UHGV virus genome: UHGV-1746862 | Length of the DNA: 13,572 bases | Origin: a virus | Reading direction: 5' to 3' (one strand) | Shown here: piece by piece, positions 431-8,358 of the stretch | Layout of the letters: each line of letters starts with the position of its first letter | Position numbering within the stretch: the stretch's first letter is position 1 | Made by a program: the position numbers and the translations under genes | Notes under the pieces: generated by a model | Databases searched by the model: none | Told to the model about the DNA's origin: nothing | The model's input: only the letters and a program-made list of their open reading frames with translations

Positions 431-519
431 TAAAGTACTTTACAAGGGGCTTATAGTTCGATAAAGTAAGCCCCAGATAAAGAACTTTACCACTAAATCC
501 TAAATTGGAGAACTTAAAA
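431..519 (+). promoter_or_regulatory. Type A cassette: promoter-like TTTACA-N17-TAAAGT overlapping a GC-clamped stem-loop, plus conserved RBS
   Basis: TTTACA 439-444; TAAAGT 462-467; stem GGGGCTTA 446-453 / TAAGCCCC 467-474; GGAG 507-510; nearly identical to the copy at 2488-2576. Confidence 0.55.
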
Positions 520-813
520 ATGGCTATTATCAAAAACGTTGTAATTACTGCAAAGACTCGTGATGACGCTCGCGTTATGGCTAAAAAGTTATGCGGGAAA
601 GTGGTTGACAATGGAAAACAATCTGCTGTAAGGTGGGGCGTGAAGGTTGATAAACAGTTGAAGTTAAAAAATTCACCGATAAACCTTTTTACATGTGTAA
701 ACACTATCGGGAAGACAAATGTATACACGAAAAAGGCATACATTAGACGCGTAGCATTAACATCCCCCATTCGTACAATGAGAAGTTATGCAAAGCTGAA
801 AATTAACAAATAA
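520..813 (+). CDS. Hypothetical small basic protein (97 aa)
   Basis: ATG at 520 with GGAG at cassette spacing. The ORF track's 505 start is an in-frame TTG inside the RBS and is rejected. Stop TAA 811-813 immediately followed by the next cassette. Confidence 0.7.
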   Translation: MAIIKNVVITAKTRDDARVMAKKLCGKVVDNGKQSAVRWGVKVDKQLKLKNSPINLFTCVNTIGKTNVYTKKAYIRRVALTSPIRTMRSYAKLKINK

Positions 814-900
814 AGTACTTTACAGGGGGCTTAAAAGTTGATATCTTAAGCCCCAGATAAAGAGCTTTACCACTCAATCCTTAAACTAGGAGATTCAAAA
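811..900 (+). promoter_or_regulatory. Type A cassette (variant stem)
   Basis: TTTACA 819-824; TATCTT 842-847; stem GGGGCTTAA 826-834 / TTAAGCCCC 846-854; CTAGGAGATTCAAAA then ATG at 901. Confidence 0.55.
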
Positions 901-1413
901 ATGAAAACTGTAGACGCTACCTTTGAAGTTGTAAAAGAAAAATTCACCATTATTTACGAAGCTGTCAATTGTTATGAAGCAAGCCATAATCTTGATAATT
1001 GGAAGTTTACAGATGACCATCAAGGCGGCGTGACTGTTAAAAATCCTAACTGTCAGCGTAATGAATTTAAATATGCAATCCCTTTACATTACAGCCTTAA
1101 ACAGCTTTCAAGTGACTATGCAAAACAAGGCCGTGAGAATCCATCGAAAGAGGCTTACACGAGCTTACAGAAAGAACTAGAAAGAGATTTAGAGGCTTCA
1201 GAGTATAACCTTGCCGCGAAAGTTGTGGATGCAAACGGTAGCACGGTTTTAGAAAGTTTTTATCTTGGTTATGCTTTCGATTGGTGCTATCGTGACGGCG
1301 ATGATTTAGAGGATAGACTAAAAGAAGAGGTGAACAACGCAGACGCAGAATCTGAAGTATTAGAACGTTTGGAATCGTTGAAAGACTCAGTGATGAATAT
1401 CTTTAAGAACTAA
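901..1413 (+). CDS. Hypothetical acidic protein (170 aa)
   Basis: ORF with cassette RBS; stop TAA 1411-1413 abuts the next cassette; no recognisable motif. Confidence 0.75.
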   Translation: MKTVDATFEVVKEKFTIIYEAVNCYEASHNLDNWKFTDDHQGGVTVKNPNCQRNEFKYAIPLHYSLKQLSSDYAKQGRENPSKEAYTSLQKELERDLEASEYNLAAKVVDANGSTVLESFYLGYAFDWCYRDGDDLEDRLKEEVNNADAESEVLERLESLKDSVMNIFKN

Positions 1414-1505
1414 ATAGATTTCTTTACACGGGGTTATCAGACTGATAAGATAGCCCCAGATAAAGAGCTTTATTCAAATCAACCCTTAAACTAGGAGATT
1501 CTAAA
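1411..1505 (+). promoter_or_regulatory. Type A cassette (divergent stem with compensatory changes)
   Basis: TTTACA 1423-1428; TAAGAT 1446-1451; stem-loop GGGGTTATCAGACTGATAAGATAGCCCC 1430-1456; CTAGGAGATTCTAAA then ATG at 1506. Confidence 0.5.
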
Positions 1506-1802
1506 ATGAAATTATCAAATAAAGTCCGTGAAAATTTAAGCAAGTTACTTAATAAAATTGATTTCATTGAAACATCAAGGAATAGTCATGATGTTATGGA
1601 ATGGTTACACGGAAAAATCAAAGGCCGTCGTGTAGTGATTTGCTTATGGAACAGTTGCAGGGAGTATAAAAAACCTGTATTGCAAGTCAATATTTATGAT
1701 GATACTTTTAAAAGTCCTGTAAAGTCTAAAAGCGATTTATTAGAATCCTATGAGATAACTGTAAATGGCAAAGTATCACGTAAAGAGGAAACACCATGTT
1801 AA
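1506..1802 (+). CDS. Hypothetical protein (98 aa)
   Basis: ORF with cassette RBS; its stop TAA 1800-1802 overlaps the next start (ATGTTAA). Confidence 0.7.
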   Translation: MKLSNKVRENLSKLLNKIDFIETSRNSHDVMEWLHGKIKGRRVVICLWNSCREYKKPVLQVNIYDDTFKSPVKSKSDLLESYEITVNGKVSRKEETPC

Positions 1803-2128
1803 TGACTGGTATCACTGCAATCATTGTCATTTTCGCGCTATATAAGGCATATAAAGCCTATAATCTGGCAAGTAAGGCAATCACACAACAGGTTAATAAT
1901 AACCTTGTAATGAGCTTTCTAGAGCGTTTAAGTGATGAACAATTAAAACGGCTAGAAATGAGCTTTAGATTCAGGGCGAGAACTTATCAAATCAGTGACA
2001 TTTTCAAAGATAATTTTCAATTAGTCGATGATTATAATTCTCTGATAAATGCTTTAAATATTAGTGACTTAAAAGATTATCACGCTGTAATTGTTCAAGA
2101 ATTGAGCAAACGAAAACAAAACTGTTGA
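1796..2128 (+). CDS. Hypothetical small membrane-anchored protein (110 aa), one N-terminal hydrophobic helix
   Basis: Translationally coupled to the upstream gene; GAGGA 7 nt upstream of ATG 1796; residues 3-17 (MTGITAIIVIFALYK) hydrophobic. Confidence 0.65.
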   Translation: MLMTGITAIIVIFALYKAYKAYNLASKAITQQVNNNLVMSFLERLSDEQLKRLEMSFRFRARTYQISDIFKDNFQLVDDYNSLINALNISDLKDYHAVIVQELSKRKQNC

Positions 2129-2217
2129 CACTGATTTTTAGATAGATTAAATTACACATCAACGGGGAGGCAATAACCTCCCTACTAAATAAAGTCCTTA
2201 AACTAGGAGATTCAAAA
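2125..2217 (+). promoter_or_regulatory. Type B cassette: TTGACA-N17-TAAATT promoter, 5'-proximal GGGGAGG/CCTCCC stem-loop, conserved RBS
   Basis: TTGACA 2125-2130 overlaps the upstream stop TGA 2126-2128; TAAATT 2148-2153; stem 2164-2182; CTAGGAGATTCAAAA then ATG at 2218. Confidence 0.6.
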
Positions 2218-2490
2218 ATGTATACTACTAACAACGGTCGTACTTTAAATGTCACTCTACGTCACTATGTTGATGGTGTAATGTGCTTTGATGATTTACA
2301 AGCTGAGCAACACATCTTAGATTGGCAAGTAGCAGGACTCCAAAAAACTGCTACCGGATACGGGAAAAAGATTCCAACTAGCTGGAAAGTACACTATGAA
2401 GGCCGTTTGCGCAGAATTTATCAAGATGTGCAAAGCAATAGCGCATCGAGTTACATTATAGTAAAAGGCAAAAAACTGCATTTAATGTAA
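2218..2490 (+). CDS. Hypothetical protein (90 aa)
   Basis: ORF with cassette RBS; stop TAA 2488-2490 abuts a type A cassette. Confidence 0.7.
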   Translation: MYTTNNGRTLNVTLRHYVDGVMCFDDLQAEQHILDWQVAGLQKTATGYGKKIPTSWKVHYEGRLRRIYQDVQSNSASSYIIVKGKKLHLM

Positions 2491-2576
2491 AGTACTTTAC
2501 AAGGGGCTTATAGTTCGATAAAGTAAGCCCCAGATAAAGAGCTTTACCACTAAATCCTAAATTGGAGAACTTAAAA
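2488..2576 (+). promoter_or_regulatory. Type A cassette, near-identical copy of 431-519
   Basis: TTTACA 2496-2501; stem-loop 2503-2531; same RBS; about 1 mismatch per 100 nt against 431-519, identity extending into the first codons (ATGGCTATTA). Confidence 0.55.
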
Positions 2577-2981
2577 ATGGCTATTAATAACCGTGAATTA
2601 TCAATTTTAAAAGCACGTTTGACCGTTAACCGGATTAATGTTATCACGTCATCAGCACCAGATGAAACACTGCAAAACATTATTGGGAAGATTCAAAGTG
2701 TTATCTTAGACGTTGAAAGCGTAAAAAATTCATTGGCTGACGTTGCAGCAGGTATCACACTAGACGGTGCGCAATATGAAATGTCCGACATGTTAGGCAA
2801 ATCTAAGGTAATGAATAAAGAGTTAGATTTGAAAATGTTCCGATTTGCTGTTAAAGTGTGGCTATCTGTCGAGTATGATGCTAACTTTGCAATCGCTGAC
2901 TTTTTCGCCACTTGGTTGCAGCGTAATTTGACTAATCATGACTTCCGCGATATCTGGGATGCAATTTATGCAGAACTCTAA
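2577..2981 (+). CDS. Hypothetical protein (134 aa)
   Basis: ATG at 2577 with cassette RBS; the track's 2562 start is an in-frame TTG inside the RBS and is rejected. Confidence 0.7.
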   Translation: MAINNRELSILKARLTVNRINVITSSAPDETLQNIIGKIQSVILDVESVKNSLADVAAGITLDGAQYEMSDMLGKSKVMNKELDLKMFRFAVKVWLSVEYDANFAIADFFATWLQRNLTNHDFRDIWDAIYAEL

Positions 2982-2990
2982 AAAATTTTG

Positions 2991-3085
2991 TTGACACTGG
3001 TTTTTAGATAGATTAAATTACACATCAACGGGGAGGGAATGACCTTCCCCACTAAGTAAAGTCCTTAAACTAGGAGATTCAAAAA
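2991..3085 (+). promoter_or_regulatory. Type B cassette
   Basis: TTGACA 2991-2996; TAAATT 3014-3019; stem GGGGAGGG 3030-3037 / CCTTCCCC 3043-3050; CTAGGAGATTCAAAAA then ATG at 3086. Confidence 0.6.
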
Positions 3086-3289
3086 ATGGCTATTATTAAT
3101 GATTTAACCATTGAAACTACACACATCAAAGATATCAAAGTTGGCGATATAGTCCTTTCCCACGGCGTAGAAAAAACTGTCACTGCAAAGGATATCAAAG
3201 AGGATTCTTTCATGGGTAGGACTCTCTTCGGTGATTCTTATTGCTTAGGCTATCTTGCAGTTTTAAAAGTTGTCAAAAATAACAAATAA
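3086..3289 (+). CDS. Hypothetical protein (67 aa)
   Basis: ORF with cassette RBS; starts MAII like the gene at 520. Confidence 0.65.
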   Translation: MAIINDLTIETTHIKDIKVGDIVLSHGVEKTVTAKDIKEDSFMGRTLFGDSYCLGYLAVLKVVKNNK

Positions 3290-3375
3290 AGTACTTTACA
3301 AGGGGCTTAAAAGTTGATAACTTAAGCCCCAGATAAAGAGCTTTACCACTAAATCCTAAACTGGAGATTCTAAAA
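3287..3375 (+). promoter_or_regulatory. Type A cassette (stem variant as in 811-900)
   Basis: TTTACA 3295-3300; stem-loop 3302-3330; CTGGAGATTCTAAAA then ATG at 3376. Confidence 0.55.
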
Positions 3376-3624
3376 ATGATGAACTACTTTAACATTCCCG
3401 ATACCTGTAGATTATTGACACAAGAAGAAAATTTGGGTAAACCTTTCATTTACCACATGCCAGATAACACGGCAAAAACTTATAGTTACAATGTTAACCG
3501 TTTCACCGCATACGCTGCAAAGAACGGCTATAGGTTGGTTACTCAAAAAGTAATGCTGGTTACAACTGCTGGCGAGATTCCTACAGTTGCAGTCAAACTA
3601 GTTTTCTCAAAGAAAGTTAAATAA
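3376..3624 (+). CDS. Hypothetical protein (82 aa)
   Basis: ORF with cassette RBS; stop TAA 3622-3624 abuts the next cassette. Confidence 0.65.
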   Translation: MMNYFNIPDTCRLLTQEENLGKPFIYHMPDNTAKTYSYNVNRFTAYAAKNGYRLVTQKVMLVTTAGEIPTVAVKLVFSKKVK

Positions 3625-3709
3625 AGCACTTTACAAGGGGCTTATAGTTCGATAAAGTAAGCCCCAGATAAAGAGCTTTACCACTAAATCCTAAACTGGA
3701 GATTCAAAA
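3622..3709 (+). promoter_or_regulatory. Type A cassette
   Basis: TTTACA 3630-3635; stem-loop 3637-3665; CTGGAGATTCAAAA then ATG at 3710. Confidence 0.55.
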
Positions 3710-4252
3710 ATGAAATGCTATCACGGAACTACTCAAGAAAATTTCCTCAACCTGATTAATAACGGTGATAAACCATCAGGCGCATGGGATTGTTCGGATA
3801 TGGACGGCAATTTTTACGTGTATCCAGAAAATAAAATCTATGGCGACGATGATGAAGAGATAACATCGGAAGGTATTCAGCAAGCTCTAGGCAATGCCAC
3901 TATCACCGCAGCTTTTCAGATGAAGACTCAAAATATTGTTATCTTAGAACTCGATATTCCAGAGGATGAGCTAAACGATGATTATTCTTGTGATAATATG
4001 TCGAGTGTAGCAAGTTTTACAGAGTACTTTGATGTAAATTGGATTAAAAAGGTCTATACAACAGAGTTTAATGCTATGTATTCACCTTTTTGTCTTCCTT
4101 CATTGGATAACCCAAATTTAAACTATCTTGATGAGTCTCTGGAGCTTCTTGCTAAAAGTGTTCAACAGTCGGACAGTATTCAGGTTTTTTGTGACATCAT
4201 GGATACACTGACAGGAAACATTGCAGAAGAGGATTTAAAGAGCTTTTTCTAA
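3710..4252 (+). CDS. Hypothetical strongly acidic protein (180 aa)
   Basis: ORF with cassette RBS; many Asp/Glu runs (DDDEE, PEDELNDDY); followed by a terminator-like hairpin. Confidence 0.75.
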   Translation: MKCYHGTTQENFLNLINNGDKPSGAWDCSDMDGNFYVYPENKIYGDDDEEITSEGIQQALGNATITAAFQMKTQNIVILELDIPEDELNDDYSCDNMSSVASFTEYFDVNWIKKVYTTEFNAMYSPFCLPSLDNPNLNYLDESLELLAKSVQQSDSIQVFCDIMDTLTGNIAEEDLKSFF

Positions 4253-4284
4253 AAACCTATGCAATCACCTTATAAACACTAATC

Positions 4285-4304
4285 AGCCCCTTGTAGGGGC
4301 TTTT
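4285..4304 (+). terminator. Putative intrinsic terminator (short T-tail)
   Basis: AGCCCC 4285-4290, loop TTGTA, GGGGCT 4296-4301, then TTTT. Confidence 0.45.
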
Positions 4305-4318
4305 AGAGGGCTTAAATC

Positions 4319-4552
4319 ATGCTTACAACCATTTACCTCATCCTTTCCATCTGTAATGGTCATTCATGTGATTTTAAAGGGCTTGAAGAGTTTACAGGAA
4401 GTAAAGAAAATGCTATTCAAGTTTGCCAGATAGCAAGACAAGACTATCCCGCTAGTGATGATATACAATGTTACTTTAAGACAGAAGATGAAGACGGTAT
4501 CTATTTTGACAGCGTAGATGGTCAGTATGAAATTATCATTGAAAAAGACTAG
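4319..4552 (+). CDS. Hypothetical small protein (77 aa) with hydrophobic, Cys-containing N-terminus
   Basis: ATG at 4319 with weak AGAGGG upstream; the only gene of the array without a cassette; N-terminus MLTTIYLILSICNGHSC. Confidence 0.5.
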   Translation: MLTTIYLILSICNGHSCDFKGLEEFTGSKENAIQVCQIARQDYPASDDIQCYFKTEDEDGIYFDSVDGQYEIIIEKD

Positions 4553-4643
4553 ACAAGCCTGATAAAAATCTGTAAATTGTCAATCAACGGGGAGGGAATG
4601 ACCTTCCCCACTAAGTACAATCCTTAAACTAGGAGATTCAAAA
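4550..4643 (+). promoter_or_regulatory. Type B cassette
   Basis: TAGACA 4550-4555 overlaps stop TAG 4550-4552; TAAATT 4573-4578; stem 4589-4609; CTAGGAGATTCAAAA then ATG at 4644. Confidence 0.55.
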
Positions 4644-4985
4644 ATGGCTTATGTAACCGTAATTACCGATAAAGAAAATTCATCTTGGTCAACTCAAGTA
4701 AGTGATAAGATGTCACCTATGCAGTGCCTAAAATACTTTGAACAGTGGAACAAAGGCGAGGACACAAGCCCCTTTCAAGTGATGCAGATTATCCATGTAG
4801 ATAACGAAGGGAATAAAACGGTTTTAAATAGTGAGTACTACGCAAGCCTTTTTGAAACGAGAAGTAAAACAATGAAGCTTTTACGTGAATCCGGTTATGC
4901 CCATATCGCCGCGTTAATCTGGGATGACCTGCTAAAAAACCAACGTATCAGCTATGTAAAACCTGAAAAAATATTCATCAGTTAA
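4644..4985 (+). CDS. Hypothetical protein (113 aa)
   Basis: ORF with cassette RBS. Confidence 0.7.
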   Translation: MAYVTVITDKENSSWSTQVSDKMSPMQCLKYFEQWNKGEDTSPFQVMQIIHVDNEGNKTVLNSEYYASLFETRSKTMKLLRESGYAHIAALIWDDLLKNQRISYVKPEKIFIS

Positions 4986-5018
4986 TCAATAACTTACAAA
5001 AAACTTTTAAAAAAAATG

Positions 5019-5047
5019 TTGACAATACCCCTTGACATTGGTAACTT
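5019..5047 (+). promoter_or_regulatory. Additional promoter-like element with tandem TTGACA hexamers and upstream A-tract
   Basis: A-run 5004-5016; TTGACA 5019-5024 and again 5032-5037; TAACTT 5042-5047 at 17-bp spacing from the first hexamer. Confidence 0.35.
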
Positions 5048-5115
5048 TGTTCGAGGGGGTTTATCTAAAAGGGATTCACTTAAAAGATTCTTTATAGATA
5101 AGCTCAAAAAATTAC

Positions 5116-5208
5116 TTGCAATCAGCTATCAAAACAAGTAAATTACTAATCAACGGGGAGGGAATGACCTTCCCCACTAAGTAAAATCCTTAAACTAGGA
5201 GAGTCAAA
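5116..5208 (+). promoter_or_regulatory. Type B cassette
   Basis: TTGCAA 5116-5121; TAAATT 5139-5144; stem GGGGAGGG 5155-5162 / CCTTCCCC 5168-5175; CTAGGAGAGTCAAA then ATG at 5209. Confidence 0.55.
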
Positions 5209-5739
5209 ATGAACAAGTTTAAAGCTATCAACTTCATTCGTTCAAATGCTGTAATGTCTAAGCCTGTAAAAGATACATATGAATTTCGTTGTAATGGGGT
5301 ACACTTTGCAACCATCACTAAGTCAGAAAACGGGGCTTATTATGTACATCGTCGTAATGTTGCAACCGTTGTAGTCTCTCACTTTATGCAAGCTGTAGCG
5401 GAATTATTACCGTTATTCTTAGAGATTTACTTAGATGAGTGTAAAAACGTTCACAACCACGTTAAAAACCTTTTAAACGGTTATAAAATGGCTTATGAAC
5501 GTTCTATCAAGTCACTAAACAAGTTTTACAATGCACCTGCAAATACTGTTTCAATGGCTTATGATGTAAACGGTGAGTTAGTTAGTCTCTTTAAAGTGGA
5601 AGAAATTAAACTGTATAATCTACGTCCTAGTGGTTACTCTAAGACTCTTGGTGAAGGTTTAACGTTCAATATCAAGAACTTAGAAAAAACTTTAAAAGAT
5701 ATTGAAAAAGATATTGACGAGACACTTAAAAGTCTGTAA
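5209..5739 (+). CDS. Hypothetical protein (176 aa)
   Basis: ORF with cassette RBS; its last codons and stop contain the promoter of the next cassette. Confidence 0.75.
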   Translation: MNKFKAINFIRSNAVMSKPVKDTYEFRCNGVHFATITKSENGAYYVHRRNVATVVVSHFMQAVAELLPLFLEIYLDECKNVHNHVKNLLNGYKMAYERSIKSLNKFYNAPANTVSMAYDVNGELVSLFKVEEIKLYNLRPSGYSKTLGEGLTFNIKNLEKTLKDIEKDIDETLKSL

Positions 5740-5806
5740 ATTGTCAATCAACGGGGAGGCGATAACCTCCCCACTAAATAAAACCCTTAAACTAGGAGAT
5801 TCAAAA
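5714..5806 (+). promoter_or_regulatory. Type B cassette, promoter embedded in the 3' end of the upstream gene
   Basis: TTGACG 5714-5719; TAAATT 5737-5742 overlaps stop TAA 5737-5739; stem GGGGAGG 5753-5759 / CCTCCCC 5766-5772; CTAGGAGATTCAAAA then ATG at 5807. Confidence 0.55.
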
Positions 5807-6055
5807 ATGGCAACTATCCGCGCTACTGTTAACGAGTTCGGTTTTTCCTCTCTGGATGTTAAATTTGACATTGCAGGCACTGATAACGCCTTTGAAATGG
5901 TGAAATGTCTTATCAGTCAGACCATCAAAGATTATAATCCTTCGGATGAGTTCTGGGAGGAAACAAAACAAGAAGTTCTCAAGGATGGTTATACTTATCA
6001 CTATTGGGGAGAAAAAATCGTCTCCCTGTACTACAACAAACAAGATTATAACTAA
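5807..6055 (+). CDS. Hypothetical protein (82 aa)
   Basis: ATG at 5807 with cassette RBS; the track's 5702 start is an in-frame extension running through the cassette and is rejected. Confidence 0.7.
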   Translation: MATIRATVNEFGFSSLDVKFDIAGTDNAFEMVKCLISQTIKDYNPSDEFWEETKQEVLKDGYTYHYWGEKIVSLYYNKQDYN

Positions 6056-6065
6056 TCGACGCAGC

Positions 6066-6117
6066 GGGGCTAAATAGCCCCAGATACCTGAACAGCCCCT
6101 TAAAATGGGGCTTTTTT
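6066..6117 (+). terminator. Two consecutive GC stem-loops, the second a canonical intrinsic terminator closing the rightward array
   Basis: GGGGCT-AAAT-AGCCCC 6066-6081; AGCCCC-TTAAAAT-GGGGCT 6094-6112 followed by TTTTT 6113-6117. Confidence 0.6.
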
Positions 6118-6560
6118 ACGTCTATGTAATAGCCTCTATTCAATCCTTTTCCTTTCCTTTCCAGAATCTATCCCACTGATTCAATAGAATCTTATCAGAC
6201 CTTAAAAGCAATAACTCTATAGTCTACTCTATAACCTCTTATCAAATCAACTTAAATAAAAGCCAATAACCCCAGAAAGGGGATGGCCCATTTAAACGCT
6301 CTATAAAGCTCTATAACAGCCTTATCAACCTAACTTAAGGGATTGCATTACCTCACCCTAAAAAGCCCTTTATAAAGCTTCCCAGAGACTTAAAAGAATC
6401 TTATAAGGGTGTAAGCTTTATCATCTCATTAGTATTCTTGTGAATATCTAAACAACCCCTTGATAGTCACTAAAAAGTATGTTATAGGGGCTTTAAAGTT
6501 ACTTTGAAGTAGCTTAAAAGTTACGTAAAAGAGGCTATAAAGTTACGTAAATGCTAGCCC

Positions 6561-6661
6561 CCTTAACATTCTCTTAACAATTTCTTAACAATCCCTACAT
6601 AGTTATGCTTTTAAGGCACTTGTTAGCAACTTGTTAGTCCCTTGTTAAATCTCTGTTAAGA
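6561..6661. repeat. Head-to-head sub-array: three CTTAACA sites, then four TGTTA(G/A) sites in the opposite orientation, each set at exact 11-bp spacing
   Basis: TAACA cores start at 6564, 6575, 6586; TGTTA cores start at 6621, 6632, 6643, 6654. Confidence 0.7.
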
Positions 6662-6863
6662 CCACGTAAAAGCCTTGTAAGAGTCTTTGACATAGCCTTA
6701 AAAGCTCCTGTAAAGCCCTATAAAGAGCTATCTGTACAGTTGGGGGATAGATACTAGGAAGAGACTTAAAAGAGCTTACAAAGAGCTATAGAGAGCTTTT
6801 AAGAGGGCTATTTAGAGAATCACTAAGAGAGAAAGGGAACGATAAGACCAGAGATAGTGACCA

Positions 6864-7140
6864 TGTTAATAGCTTGTTAAAAAGATTAAACACTTGTTAG
6901 AAACTTGTTAATTATCTTAACAAAATAACTCTTTAAAATTAACTTGTTAGCTCTTGTTAATCATCTGTTAAGACTCTGTAAAGACTATTCAGCACTTGTT
7001 AGAAAACTGTTACAGCCTTGTTAGTTCTGTTAAGAAACTGTTAAGACCTTTGAAGAGTTGTTAAGAAGGTGTTAGAACTGTTAAGAGATTGTTAAGGATA
7101 TTTTAAAATTTTGCAAAGTACTTGTAAGGGAGCTGTTAAG
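6864..7140 (+). repeat. Tandem array of about 17 TGTTA(A)G-family sites, mostly phased at 9-11 bp
   Basis: TGTTA cores start at 6864, 6875, 6895, 6906, 6945, 6955, 6966, 6997, 7008, 7019, 7028, 7039, 7059, 7070, 7079, 7090, 7134; one inverted copy (CTTAACA) at 6916-6922. Confidence 0.7.
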
Positions 7141-7429
7141 GGCTACCAAGCAGATATACATCCTAATCAGATATTTTTGAGTTCCTTCAAAGACCCTAAA
7201 AAATGACTTGACAGTCCTATTTTATAAAAATTTTAAGATTCTGAATAATTACCTATACAGCCTTTTAAAAATACAGGTAATAACAGGCTTATAAGATACC
7301 TTGTTAGTACCGTGTTAGACCTTGTGAGATAAGGCCTGTAAAGATATTCCTGTTAAGTTTATTAAAACAGTCTATATAGAGGCTTAGTAATACCTAGTGA
7401 ACACCTATAGAGAGTATCATAGCTGACAT

Positions 7430-7635
7430 AGAGATTAAGAGGTGTATAGGAGCTTCTAAGAAGGTGTAGAGGGATGGTTAAGGTGATTGTATAGGTTGTT
7501 AAGAAGGCTTGTTAGAGGGCTTGTTAGAAGGGTTATACAGAGGGGCTATTAAGACCACTAGATAGTTACTAAGATACTATATAGTACTATATAACTATAT
7601 AGAGAGTAAGATTAAGAAGGTTGTTAAGAAGGATA
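7430..7635 (+). repeat. Cluster of longer motif variants ((C)TTGTTA(A)GAAGG, AAGGTGTAGAGG)
   Basis: TTGTTAAGAAGG at 7496-7507 and 7621-7632; CTTGTTAGAGGG at 7508-7519; CTTGTTAGAAGGG at 7520-7532; related GGTGTATAGG / AAGGTGTAGAGGG at 7440-7473. Confidence 0.55.
7575..7602. repeat. TATA-rich palindromic cluster
   Basis: Perfect 12-bp palindrome TACTATATAGTA at 7575-7586; three CTATATA(G) copies at 7577, 7587 and 7595. Confidence 0.6.
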
Positions 7636-7690
7636 GATATTTTGTTCACATATGATGGTGACCCAGAGGTTGGGACAACCGATAAAATTT

Positions 7691-7723
7691 TATAAAAGTA
7701 AAAAGCCCCCAATTAAGGAGGCT
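7691..7723 (-). terminator. Putative intrinsic terminator closing the leftward gene cluster
   Basis: On the minus strand, AGCCUCC-UUAAUU-GGGGGCU (7 bp stem with one G-U pair) followed by UUUUACUUUUAUA, just past stop TAA 7735-7737. Confidence 0.55.
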
Positions 7724-7734
7724 CTTAAGATATT

Positions 7735-8358
7735 TTAAATCAGTGTTTCCAGAACTGTTTTTAATGATGACTTGGTTGTCTGATAAAAATGAGTAAATCC
7801 ATTATTGTTATCGAATATCTGCATCATAACAGCATCTCCCTTGATTGGGTACACTCGGATATCATAGTGAAAACCATTAAAGACACAAGAGCCATTACAG
7901 AATGCACTAAAGTCATCCACTGAGATATACTCTTCATGCCCTGTGATTTTTATACAAACACCTTTACTCGGTCTCTTAGGGTTGATATCTTCCATCACAG
8001 ACATACTCTGCCCACCAAGAGATACCATAGTGACCACTTTACGGTTCTTCTGTTTAAAGTACATCTTAACTTTCTGTAAAGTGTCTTCATAGAACGGGTA
8101 AGACCTTTCTACAAAGATTCCTTCAAGTGGCTCTTTACCATTTTCAACTTCTCTGTTATGCCGTACTGCAAAGATAATTTGTTCGAACCAGTCAAGATTT
8201 TCTTCGGAGAGTGCTTCTCGAACATCACTCCAGTCAAGTACTAGGTAGTTACCTTCAACTTCTTTTAAGTTATCTTTTTCCATAGATATCACACCATTAT
8301 CGTAAAACTTGATATTCTGGTACTGCGAATTTATTACTATTGTTCTTGATGAGGTCAT
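7735..8358 (-). CDS. Hypothetical protein (207 aa; possibly starts at the internal ATG 8283, giving 182 aa)
   Basis: Long ORF; the first 62 nt overlap the upstream gene in another frame; no clear SD before ATG 8358. Confidence 0.65.
   Translation of the reverse strand: MTSSRTIVINSQYQNIKFYDNGVISMEKDNLKEVEGNYLVLDWSDVREALSEENLDWFEQIIFAVRHNREVENGKEPLEGIFVERSYPFYEDTLQKVKMYFKQKNRKVVTMVSLGGQSMSVMEDINPKRPSKGVCIKITGHEEYISVDDFSAFCNGSCVFNGFHYDIRVYPIKGDAVMMQIFDNNNGFTHFYQTTKSSLKTVLETLI

Follow-up and report, generated by a model that had tools for sequence, protein, structure and literature searches.

The T7 concatemer junction consists of a 160-bp terminal repeat with flanking short-repeat arrays, SRL and SRR, an organization that was reportedly described by Dunn and Studier (1983) and by Chung and Hinkle (1990). 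By analogy, this junction is mechanistically the nearest model for the locus discussed in this article, a non-coding gap of 1679 bp (positions 6056-7734) between two converging gene clusters in a 13,572-nucleotide stretch of the virus genome UHGV-1746862, hereafter referred to as the window. The 1.68-kb gap is most probably where the chromosome ends, or concatemer junction, of a Felix O1-like myophage are located, a phage whose DNA is packaged with direct terminal repeats that are short, exact, and non-permuted, as in T7. The core of this finding is already known from the published terminal repeats of UAB_Phi87, Ro111lw, Pr103Blw, and other phages. The confinement of a hexameric element, TGTTAR, to the repeat, its helical phasing and sequence constraint, and the conservation of the cut sites over four genera are provisionally regarded as undescribed in the literature searched.

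Terminal repeats of Felix O1-like phages have been established by several independent routes. The Felix O1 paper deduced short terminal repeats from the difference between genome size and sequence length, whereas DNA ends are not mentioned in the wV8 paper. In UAB_Phi87, a 608-bp repeat was determined by Bal31 digestion followed by run-off sequencing, with Bal31 degrading two defined fragments, and the TerL proteins of Felix O1-like phages were found to cluster as a group of phages with terminal repeats (PMC4837284). PhageTerm analysis yielded a 613-bp T7-like terminal repeat for Ro111lw (PMC6454146) and a 581-bp repeat of the direct terminal repeat (DTR) class for Pr103Blw (PMC8303462), direct terminal repeats were stated in the announcement of I14.1 (PMC11737134), and the Hafnia phage SPARTY, a member of Kolesnikvirus, was also assigned to the DTR class by PhageTerm (PMC8928762).

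Searches with the whole 13.6-kb window and with a 1.66-kb region matched ~260 phage records, nearly all of which are Felix O1-like myophages (Felixounavirus) with Escherichia, Salmonella, and Shigella as hosts. The top match is Felixounavirus LF82P3 with 96% identity, and many Felixounavirus genomes share 90-96% identity with the window. The window is ordered as a series of small rightward genes, the gap, and a leftward cluster extending to the lysin gene, with the last plus-strand gene stopping at 6055 and the first minus-strand gene ending at 7735.

Based on the end repeats of Ro111lw and I14.1 and on the sequence of UAB_Phi87, a direct terminal repeat of 591 bp can be placed at 6557-7147. 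Each end of the Ro111lw record is formed by an exact copy of a 613-bp repeat that aligns to this interval, and the I14.1 record carries an exact 581-bp end repeat with the same boundaries as Ro111lw. At least seven records (Ro111lw, I14.1, E9, H12, D4, ECP2307, and NBEco004) have their first or last base precisely at 6557, breaks at ~6552 and ~7145 are seen in two old draft assemblies, and the UAB_Phi87 repeat, as printed in Figure S1 of its paper, maps to 6565-7149; many other records are opened elsewhere, for example at rIIA. In Kolesnikvirus, the SPARTY record has an exact 439-bp repeat at both ends with boundaries homologous to those of the window, and the record of the Erwinia phage Roscha1 opens one base from the homologous spot. 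The original prediction had described a module boundary, possibly near a genome terminus or a terminal-repeat boundary, and this proposal is borne out: the gene clusters that converge on the gap represent the opposite ends of the linear chromosome, both virion ends of congeneric phages fall inside the gap at 6557 and 7147 (PMC4837284, PMC6454146, PMC8303462), and the whole terminal repeat lies within it. In the window the repeat occurs only once, as would be the case in a circularized assembly or at a concatemer junction, and it is predicted to be present twice in virion DNA.

The length of the repeat varies among relatives, with predicted values of 569-625 bp in Felixounavirus and 570 bp in Mooglevirus and Suspvirus, and a measured value of 439 bp in Kolesnikvirus. 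In phage heid, one extra 11-bp TTTCTTAACAA unit is found at the left end of the repeat, aligned to window position 6591/6592. The array evolves by slippage of units, with the boundaries remaining fixed. Between genera, the repeat aligns over 95-100% of its length, compared with 31-41% for the 13.5-kb window.

The left boundary of the repeat lies within 6549-6568 on the plus strand and reads ...AAATGCTA/GCCCCCTTAACA, where the slash marks the cut, as judged from record ends, three genera, and SPARTY. The cut falls between 6556 and 6557, so that the top strand of virion DNA has G6557 at its 5' end; the sequence GCTA/GCCCCCTTAACA is intact at 6553-6568, and the virion DNA of relatives starts at TA/GCCCCC. 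Just outside the right boundary (...GGGCTACC/AAGCAG...), a conserved box, AAGCAGATATAC, occupies 7148-7159 on the plus strand. Here GGGCTACC/AAGCAGATATAC is intact at 7140-7159, the virion DNA of relatives ends at CTACC/AAGCAGATATAC, and the boundary in full is ...GTTAAGGGCTACC/AAGCAGATATACATC.... Both boundary sequences are identical or nearly so in nine relatives from Felixounavirus, Mooglevirus, and Suspvirus, and AAGCAGATATAC is invariant in these nine as well as in the Kolesnikvirus members Roscha1 and SPARTY, a much more distant genus in which only ~125 nt of the region aligns, at 71% identity. The repeat of SPARTY is bounded by ...GGTTA/GCCACTTTTACA... and ...CCACT/AAGCAGATATAC. In the 87-kb Ro111lw genome, AAGCAGATATAC occurs once, at position 614, directly after the 613-bp repeat. 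That laboratories, methods, and genera independent of one another place the ends at homologous conserved sequences speaks for sequence-specific cutting. The sequence GCTA(G)CC precedes both cuts provided that the left cut is moved by 3 nt, and, read inward from each 5' end, both DNA ends begin with G..CCCTTAACA; these likenesses hint at a cut-site word common to the two boundaries, the calls of which carry an uncertainty of up to 8 nt.

The interior of the repeat is characterized by an array of TGTTAR hexamers. The window contains 53 copies, compared with 28.2 +/- 5.0 in shuffled sequences, none of which (0/200) reached 53. Within the 591-bp repeat there are 24 copies (20 forward and 4 inverted), the left flank has none and the right flank 7, and the background in coding DNA is ~1-2 per kb. 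Three inverted TGTTAA copies (TTAACA on the top strand) lie 11 bp apart directly inside the left boundary (6563-6590, minus strand), as seen in both motif counts and alignment, and one further inverted copy is located at 6917. The 20 forward copies extend over 6621-7139 on the plus strand, one of them directly inside the right boundary. Neighboring copies are mostly separated by 9-11, 20-22, or 31 bp, and across the entire repeat the forward copies stay in phase with a period of 10.4 bp, with a Rayleigh power of 11.1 against a 99.9th percentile of 8.95 under the null. This period corresponds to the helical repeat of DNA. The layout is common to three genera, and the hexamer columns are 95% conserved compared with 85% for random hexamers in the repeat (permutation p ~5e-5); for the other two genera alone, the values are 91% and 75% (permutation p ~5e-5). 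In Ro111lw, no 600-bp window away from the ends contains more than 7 copies, compared with 24 at the ends. A literature search for the TGTTAAG motif returned only unrelated papers, and the searchable literature being incomplete, this absence is provisional.

Both gene clusters are closed by predicted intrinsic terminators facing the gap, in agreement with the original prediction of a strong terminator after the rightward array and of an opposite-strand terminator after the leftward cluster. The former (6094-6118, plus strand), which emerged from the consensus scan, the fold, and the relatives, has a 6-bp stem (AGCCCC at 6094-6099 and GGGGCT at 6107-6112), a 7-nt loop, and T6 at 6113-6118, with a folding energy of -11.8 kcal/mol (z = -3.2); it corresponds to t23 in the list of the Felix O1 genome paper (PMC3185647). 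The latter (7726-7696, minus strand), found by the same three approaches, has a 10-bp stem spanning 7726-7701 with a 6-nt loop, followed by U5, and a folding energy of -15.2 kcal/mol (z = -3.5). They lie 39 nt and 9 nt past the respective stop codons, and both are one-directional, with the U-run absent from the opposite strand. A hairpin with a U-run follows the same two genes in 9/9 relatives from Felixounavirus, Mooglevirus, and Suspvirus. Across these relatives the stems are kept and the loops are variable; in Mordin, Moogle, and SUSP1 (Mooglevirus and Suspvirus), the minus-strand hairpin occurs at the same position with another sequence. Both terminators were also marked by other annotators in the Mordin and Moogle records. 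Since the consensus scan as a whole is not enriched (10 sites compared with 7.2 +/- 2.9 in shuffles), the support for these two terminators is positional and comparative. The stretch originally singled out had begun at 6066, where a GC hairpin, GGGGCT-AAAT-AGCCCC, does lie directly after the stop codon (6066-6081, plus strand; seen in the fold and conserved in nine relatives), but it lacks a U-run. The gap may be transcriptionally silent. A literature search for a Felixounavirus transcriptome found none. Promoter-like matches over the whole window are not enriched (46 compared with 39.5 +/- 6.0 in shuffles).

A sequence of events modeled on T7 can be proposed for this junction. In replicative concatemers, each junction would carry one repeat, and terminase would cut or nick the two conserved boundaries on opposite strands, at 6556/6557 on the top one and at 7147/7148 on the bottom one. 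Following the Watson model for T7, a second copy of the repeat would then arise by strand-displacement synthesis; the T7-type packaging background for such steps is said to be covered by Casjens and Gilcrease (2009). The TGTTAR array and the AAGCAGATATAC box may constitute a cis-acting platform for a recognition protein or for the terminase itself, and they are the best candidates for such a platform, being found only at the ends, on one face of the helix, and under selection. By analogy, the array is probably a platform for packaging or end recognition. The terminators, in turn, may keep RNA polymerase out of the nucleoprotein complex and prevent antisense transcription into the adjoining genome copy of the concatemer. 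The end carrying the small-gene array may enter the cell first, a suggestion hinted at by the expression peak of Felix O1 ORFs (open reading frames) 20-22 at 5 min.

Several points weigh against this interpretation of the gap and of its elements. The termini are placed from relatives, and the window itself shows one repeat copy. The run-off boundaries of UAB_Phi87 differ by 8 nt and 2 nt from those of the PhageTerm type, and the 544-bp end repeat of MET-P1-301, at ~6589-7133, differs by 32 and 14 nt. Six promoter-like matches of weak sigma-70 type (9/12 positions) lie in the gap, both terminators are predictions, and the packaging role of the TGTTAR array and the AAGCAGATATAC box is one that we infer. 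To our knowledge, no protein binding the array is known. No small terminase for Felix O1-like phages is given in the literature (PMC4837284 and the Felix O1 paper), and PHROG and Pfam scans of the genes beside TerL in Ro111lw returned no small-terminase family. The large terminase, TerL, is encoded outside the window; that of Ro111lw has Terminase_6N/6C domains. Immediately upstream of its gene, the Ro111lw genome contains a conserved ORF of 66 aa (16758-16958; PHROG 4397, unknown function), which by its position is a candidate for the missing small terminase. The more specific proposal that the array and the AAGCAGATATAC box form the DNA-recognition platform of a packaging system without a recognizable small terminase is put forward tentatively, as a possibility rather than an expectation. 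If it were true, the binding factor would represent a new kind of packaging-specificity or DNA-end-binding factor in Ounavirinae. This factor might be TerL acting alone, some novel small protein, or a protein of the virion, for example the small gp23, whose gene adjoins the end.

The array could alternatively function as a replication origin, beside or instead of a role in packaging, with the hexamers serving as iterons for a phage initiator together with an AT-rich unwinding element. Its iteron-like organization in phase with the DNA helix, the AT-rich patches at 7218-7257, 6910-6949, and 7088-7127, the secondary origins that T7 has near its ends, and the lack of a mapped replication origin in Felix O1-like phages would fit such a function. 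However, the array fills exactly the stretch between the two virion ends, no perfect DnaA box is present and near-matches are not enriched, and the flanking genes have no initiator-type family hit. In scans for DnaA, IHF, Fis, and Chi, no enrichment was observed (one IHF consensus match at 6453 and no Chi site). In Ro111lw, the replication genes are 40-50 kb away, and the cumulative GC skew of the genome follows the direction of transcription without an origin signal. An origin is considered improbable. Far less probable is the T5-like arrangement that the original prediction had offered as an analogy, in which the repeat-rich DNA would be an injection-stop signal at the edge of the segment transferred in the first step. 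In T5, repeat-rich non-coding DNA is associated with the terminal repeat, and in Felix O1-like phages early genes (Felix O1 ORFs 20-22, with their 5-min peak) adjoin one end; yet the repeats here are 0.44-0.63 kb and gene-free, whereas that of T5 is ~10 kb and includes pre-early genes. In published PhageTerm results, relatives are grouped with T7-type short repeats (PMC6454146, PMC8928762), and neither the literature searched nor the sequence contains any sign of two-step DNA transfer, so that the T5 analogy did not hold and nothing indicates an injection-stop region.

It is similarly hard to regard the gap as a mere transcriptional buffer in which the repeats are neutral products of slippage and the link with chromosome ends is an artifact of where records were opened. 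Records opened elsewhere, such as at rIIA, and the gain and loss of units by 11-bp slippage would be expected in that case, but the ends have been mapped by experiment, through Bal31 digestion and run-off sequencing (PMC4837284), independent PhageTerm runs from different laboratories and genera gave homologous boundaries, the repeat is far more alignable between genera than the window at large, and motif positions are more constrained than spacers; a simple buffer is thus very unlikely. Least credible of all is a non-coding RNA or a set of small proteins encoded in the gap and owning the terminators. Some records annotate hypothetical proteins of 25-49 aa in the gap, and the weak promoter-like matches could be read in the same direction, whereas no conserved ORF exists and both terminators face inward from the flanking genes. 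The only ORFs touching the gap are two marginal ones with TTG starts (5979-6143, 54 aa, and 7587-7712, 41 aa), and indels among relatives comprise 11-bp repeat units, not triplets, which fits non-coding DNA. An Rfam scan of 5700-8000 produced one chance-level Phe-leader hit on the terminator hairpin (E = 0.23), and a non-coding RNA gene was rejected; a tRNA scan found nothing.

Around the terminal repeat, unique flanks of 501 bp on the left and 587 bp on the right complete the gap. The segment beside the right-end repeat copy (6119-6556), as characterized by GC skew, self-similarity, and motif counts, is pyrimidine-rich on the top strand, with a GC skew of -0.25 to -0.32 and with ~11-bp units of the CTnTAAAG or CTTAAAAG type that give self-similarity at a lag of 10-11. 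The segment beside the left-end copy (7148-7695), as characterized by GC skew, motif counts, and alignment, is purine-rich on the top strand, with a GC skew of up to +0.40 and ~89% column conservation, and it holds an AT-rich patch (7218-7257) and a TATATAG-rich palindromic patch (7566-7603). The strand composition of the flanks is thus opposite, the top strand being C-rich on the left and G-rich on the right, and both flanks are composed of related ~11-bp units such as CTnTAAAG. Additionally, CAGATAT occurs twice, 18 nt apart, just outside the repeat (7148-7180) and is conserved, as is the palindromic patch.

The gene nearest the right chromosome end is the last gene of the rightward array (5807-6055, plus strand; ORF list, PHROG 4559, and Felix O1 annotation). 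Its 82-aa product is a homologue of Felix O1 ORF23/gp23, and PHROG 4559 is a family of unknown function. Shotgun proteomics detected Felix O1 gp23 in purified virions (9.7 kDa, 53% coverage), which is odd for a gene within an early small-gene array; the 82-aa homologue has no Pfam hit. The gene nearest the left chromosome end is the first of the leftward cluster (7735-8358, minus strand; ORF list, PHROG 4330, and Felix O1 annotation), a homologue of Felix O1 ORF24 whose PHROG 4330 match has no assigned function. The plus-strand set includes early genes, namely homologues of Felix O1 ORFs 20-22 (with the ORF20 homologue unmapped) at 4644-5739; in Felix O1, timing by reverse-transcription PCR (RT-PCR) placed the expression peak of ORFs 20-22 at 5 min and that of ORFs 23-26 at 25 min (PMC3185647). 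When ten flanking proteins were scanned, Pfam produced no hit and PHROG only families without a known function, with no initiator, DNA-binding clue, or small terminase among them.

Within 431-5816 on the plus strand, a copy of one of two repeated cassettes (80-107 nt) stands in front of every small rightward gene; the cassettes contain a promoter-like sequence (TTTACA-N17-TAAAGT or TTGACA-N17-TAAATT), a GC hairpin, and a ribosome-binding site. Members of one family start at 431, 811, 2488, 3287, and 3622, and those of the other at 2112/2148, 2978/3015, 4537/4574, 5103/5140, and 5737. The hairpin at 6066-6081 (GGGGCT..AGCCCCAGATA) resembles that of the cassettes (family D1), as if it were a cassette remnant. 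Repeats of 57 and 39 bp of the cassette kind are mentioned in the Felix O1 paper. Several oddities were also encountered in GenBank (PP892526.1, GU169904.1, and MG065664.1): the sequence of phage I14.1 is Felix O1-like, yet it is filed as Tequintavirus, and Felix O1-like DNA is found inside the 147-kb 'Staphylococcus phage SA1' record and the 'Campylobacter phage A132' record. Mixing or mislabelling is the probable cause in the SA1, A132, and I14.1 entries.

Felix O1-like phages are widely used for the typing, biocontrol, and therapy of Salmonella and E. coli, so their true ends matter in practice. Most database records of this group are opened arbitrarily and lack the second repeat copy, and with the two conserved boundary sequences both the ends and the length of the repeat can be read directly from any assembly of the subfamily. 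The cut sites and the phased TGTTAR array offer a concrete cis-element with which the DNA-recognition factor can be sought; beyond the question of recognition, the finding confirms known biology.

Among the described systems, the terminal repeats of UAB_Phi87, Ro111lw, Pr103Blw, I14.1, and SPARTY are the closest, the repeat of the window being the orthologous sequence. The boundary sequences, the location between homologues of ORF23 and ORF24, and the TGTTAR array are shared, and the only difference is length (591 bp here), which arises from the gain or loss of ~11-bp units; the ends in the window are read from these relatives.

The R sites of lambda cos, the P1 pac site with its TGATCA/G hexamers, and the SPP1 pac site are terminase recognition arrays. 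They resemble the present array in having several copies of a short element, in both orientations, around a terminase cut site, but they serve cohesive ends or headful series instead of exact terminal repeats, and their binding proteins are known. T5 shares with the window repeat-rich non-coding DNA associated with a terminal repeat, as well as early genes near one end; the T5 repeat of ~10 kb carries the pre-early genes transferred in the first step, whereas the repeat of the window is 0.6 kb, gene-free, and accompanied by no evidence for two-step entry.

The likeness to T7 extends further. Both have a short, exact, gene-free repeat at unique ends, with early genes beside one end, and both have arrays of short elements at roughly helical spacing in and beside the repeat; the T7 sequence contains 3 copies of CCTAAAG in its repeat and ~12 copies of YYTAAAG at 175-340, and units of the CTnTAAAG type also occur in the left flank of the window. 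Differences are nevertheless evident, in that the phage of the window is a myovirus without an RNA polymerase of its own, and its TerL would have Terminase_6N/6C domains, as in Ro111lw, without a recognizable small terminase, whereas the terminase subunits of T7 are known. Moreover, the dominant element here, TGTTAR, is located within the repeat with a phase of 10.4 bp, and the predicted convergent terminators would shield the junction, whereas the concatemer junction of T7 is entered by transcription.

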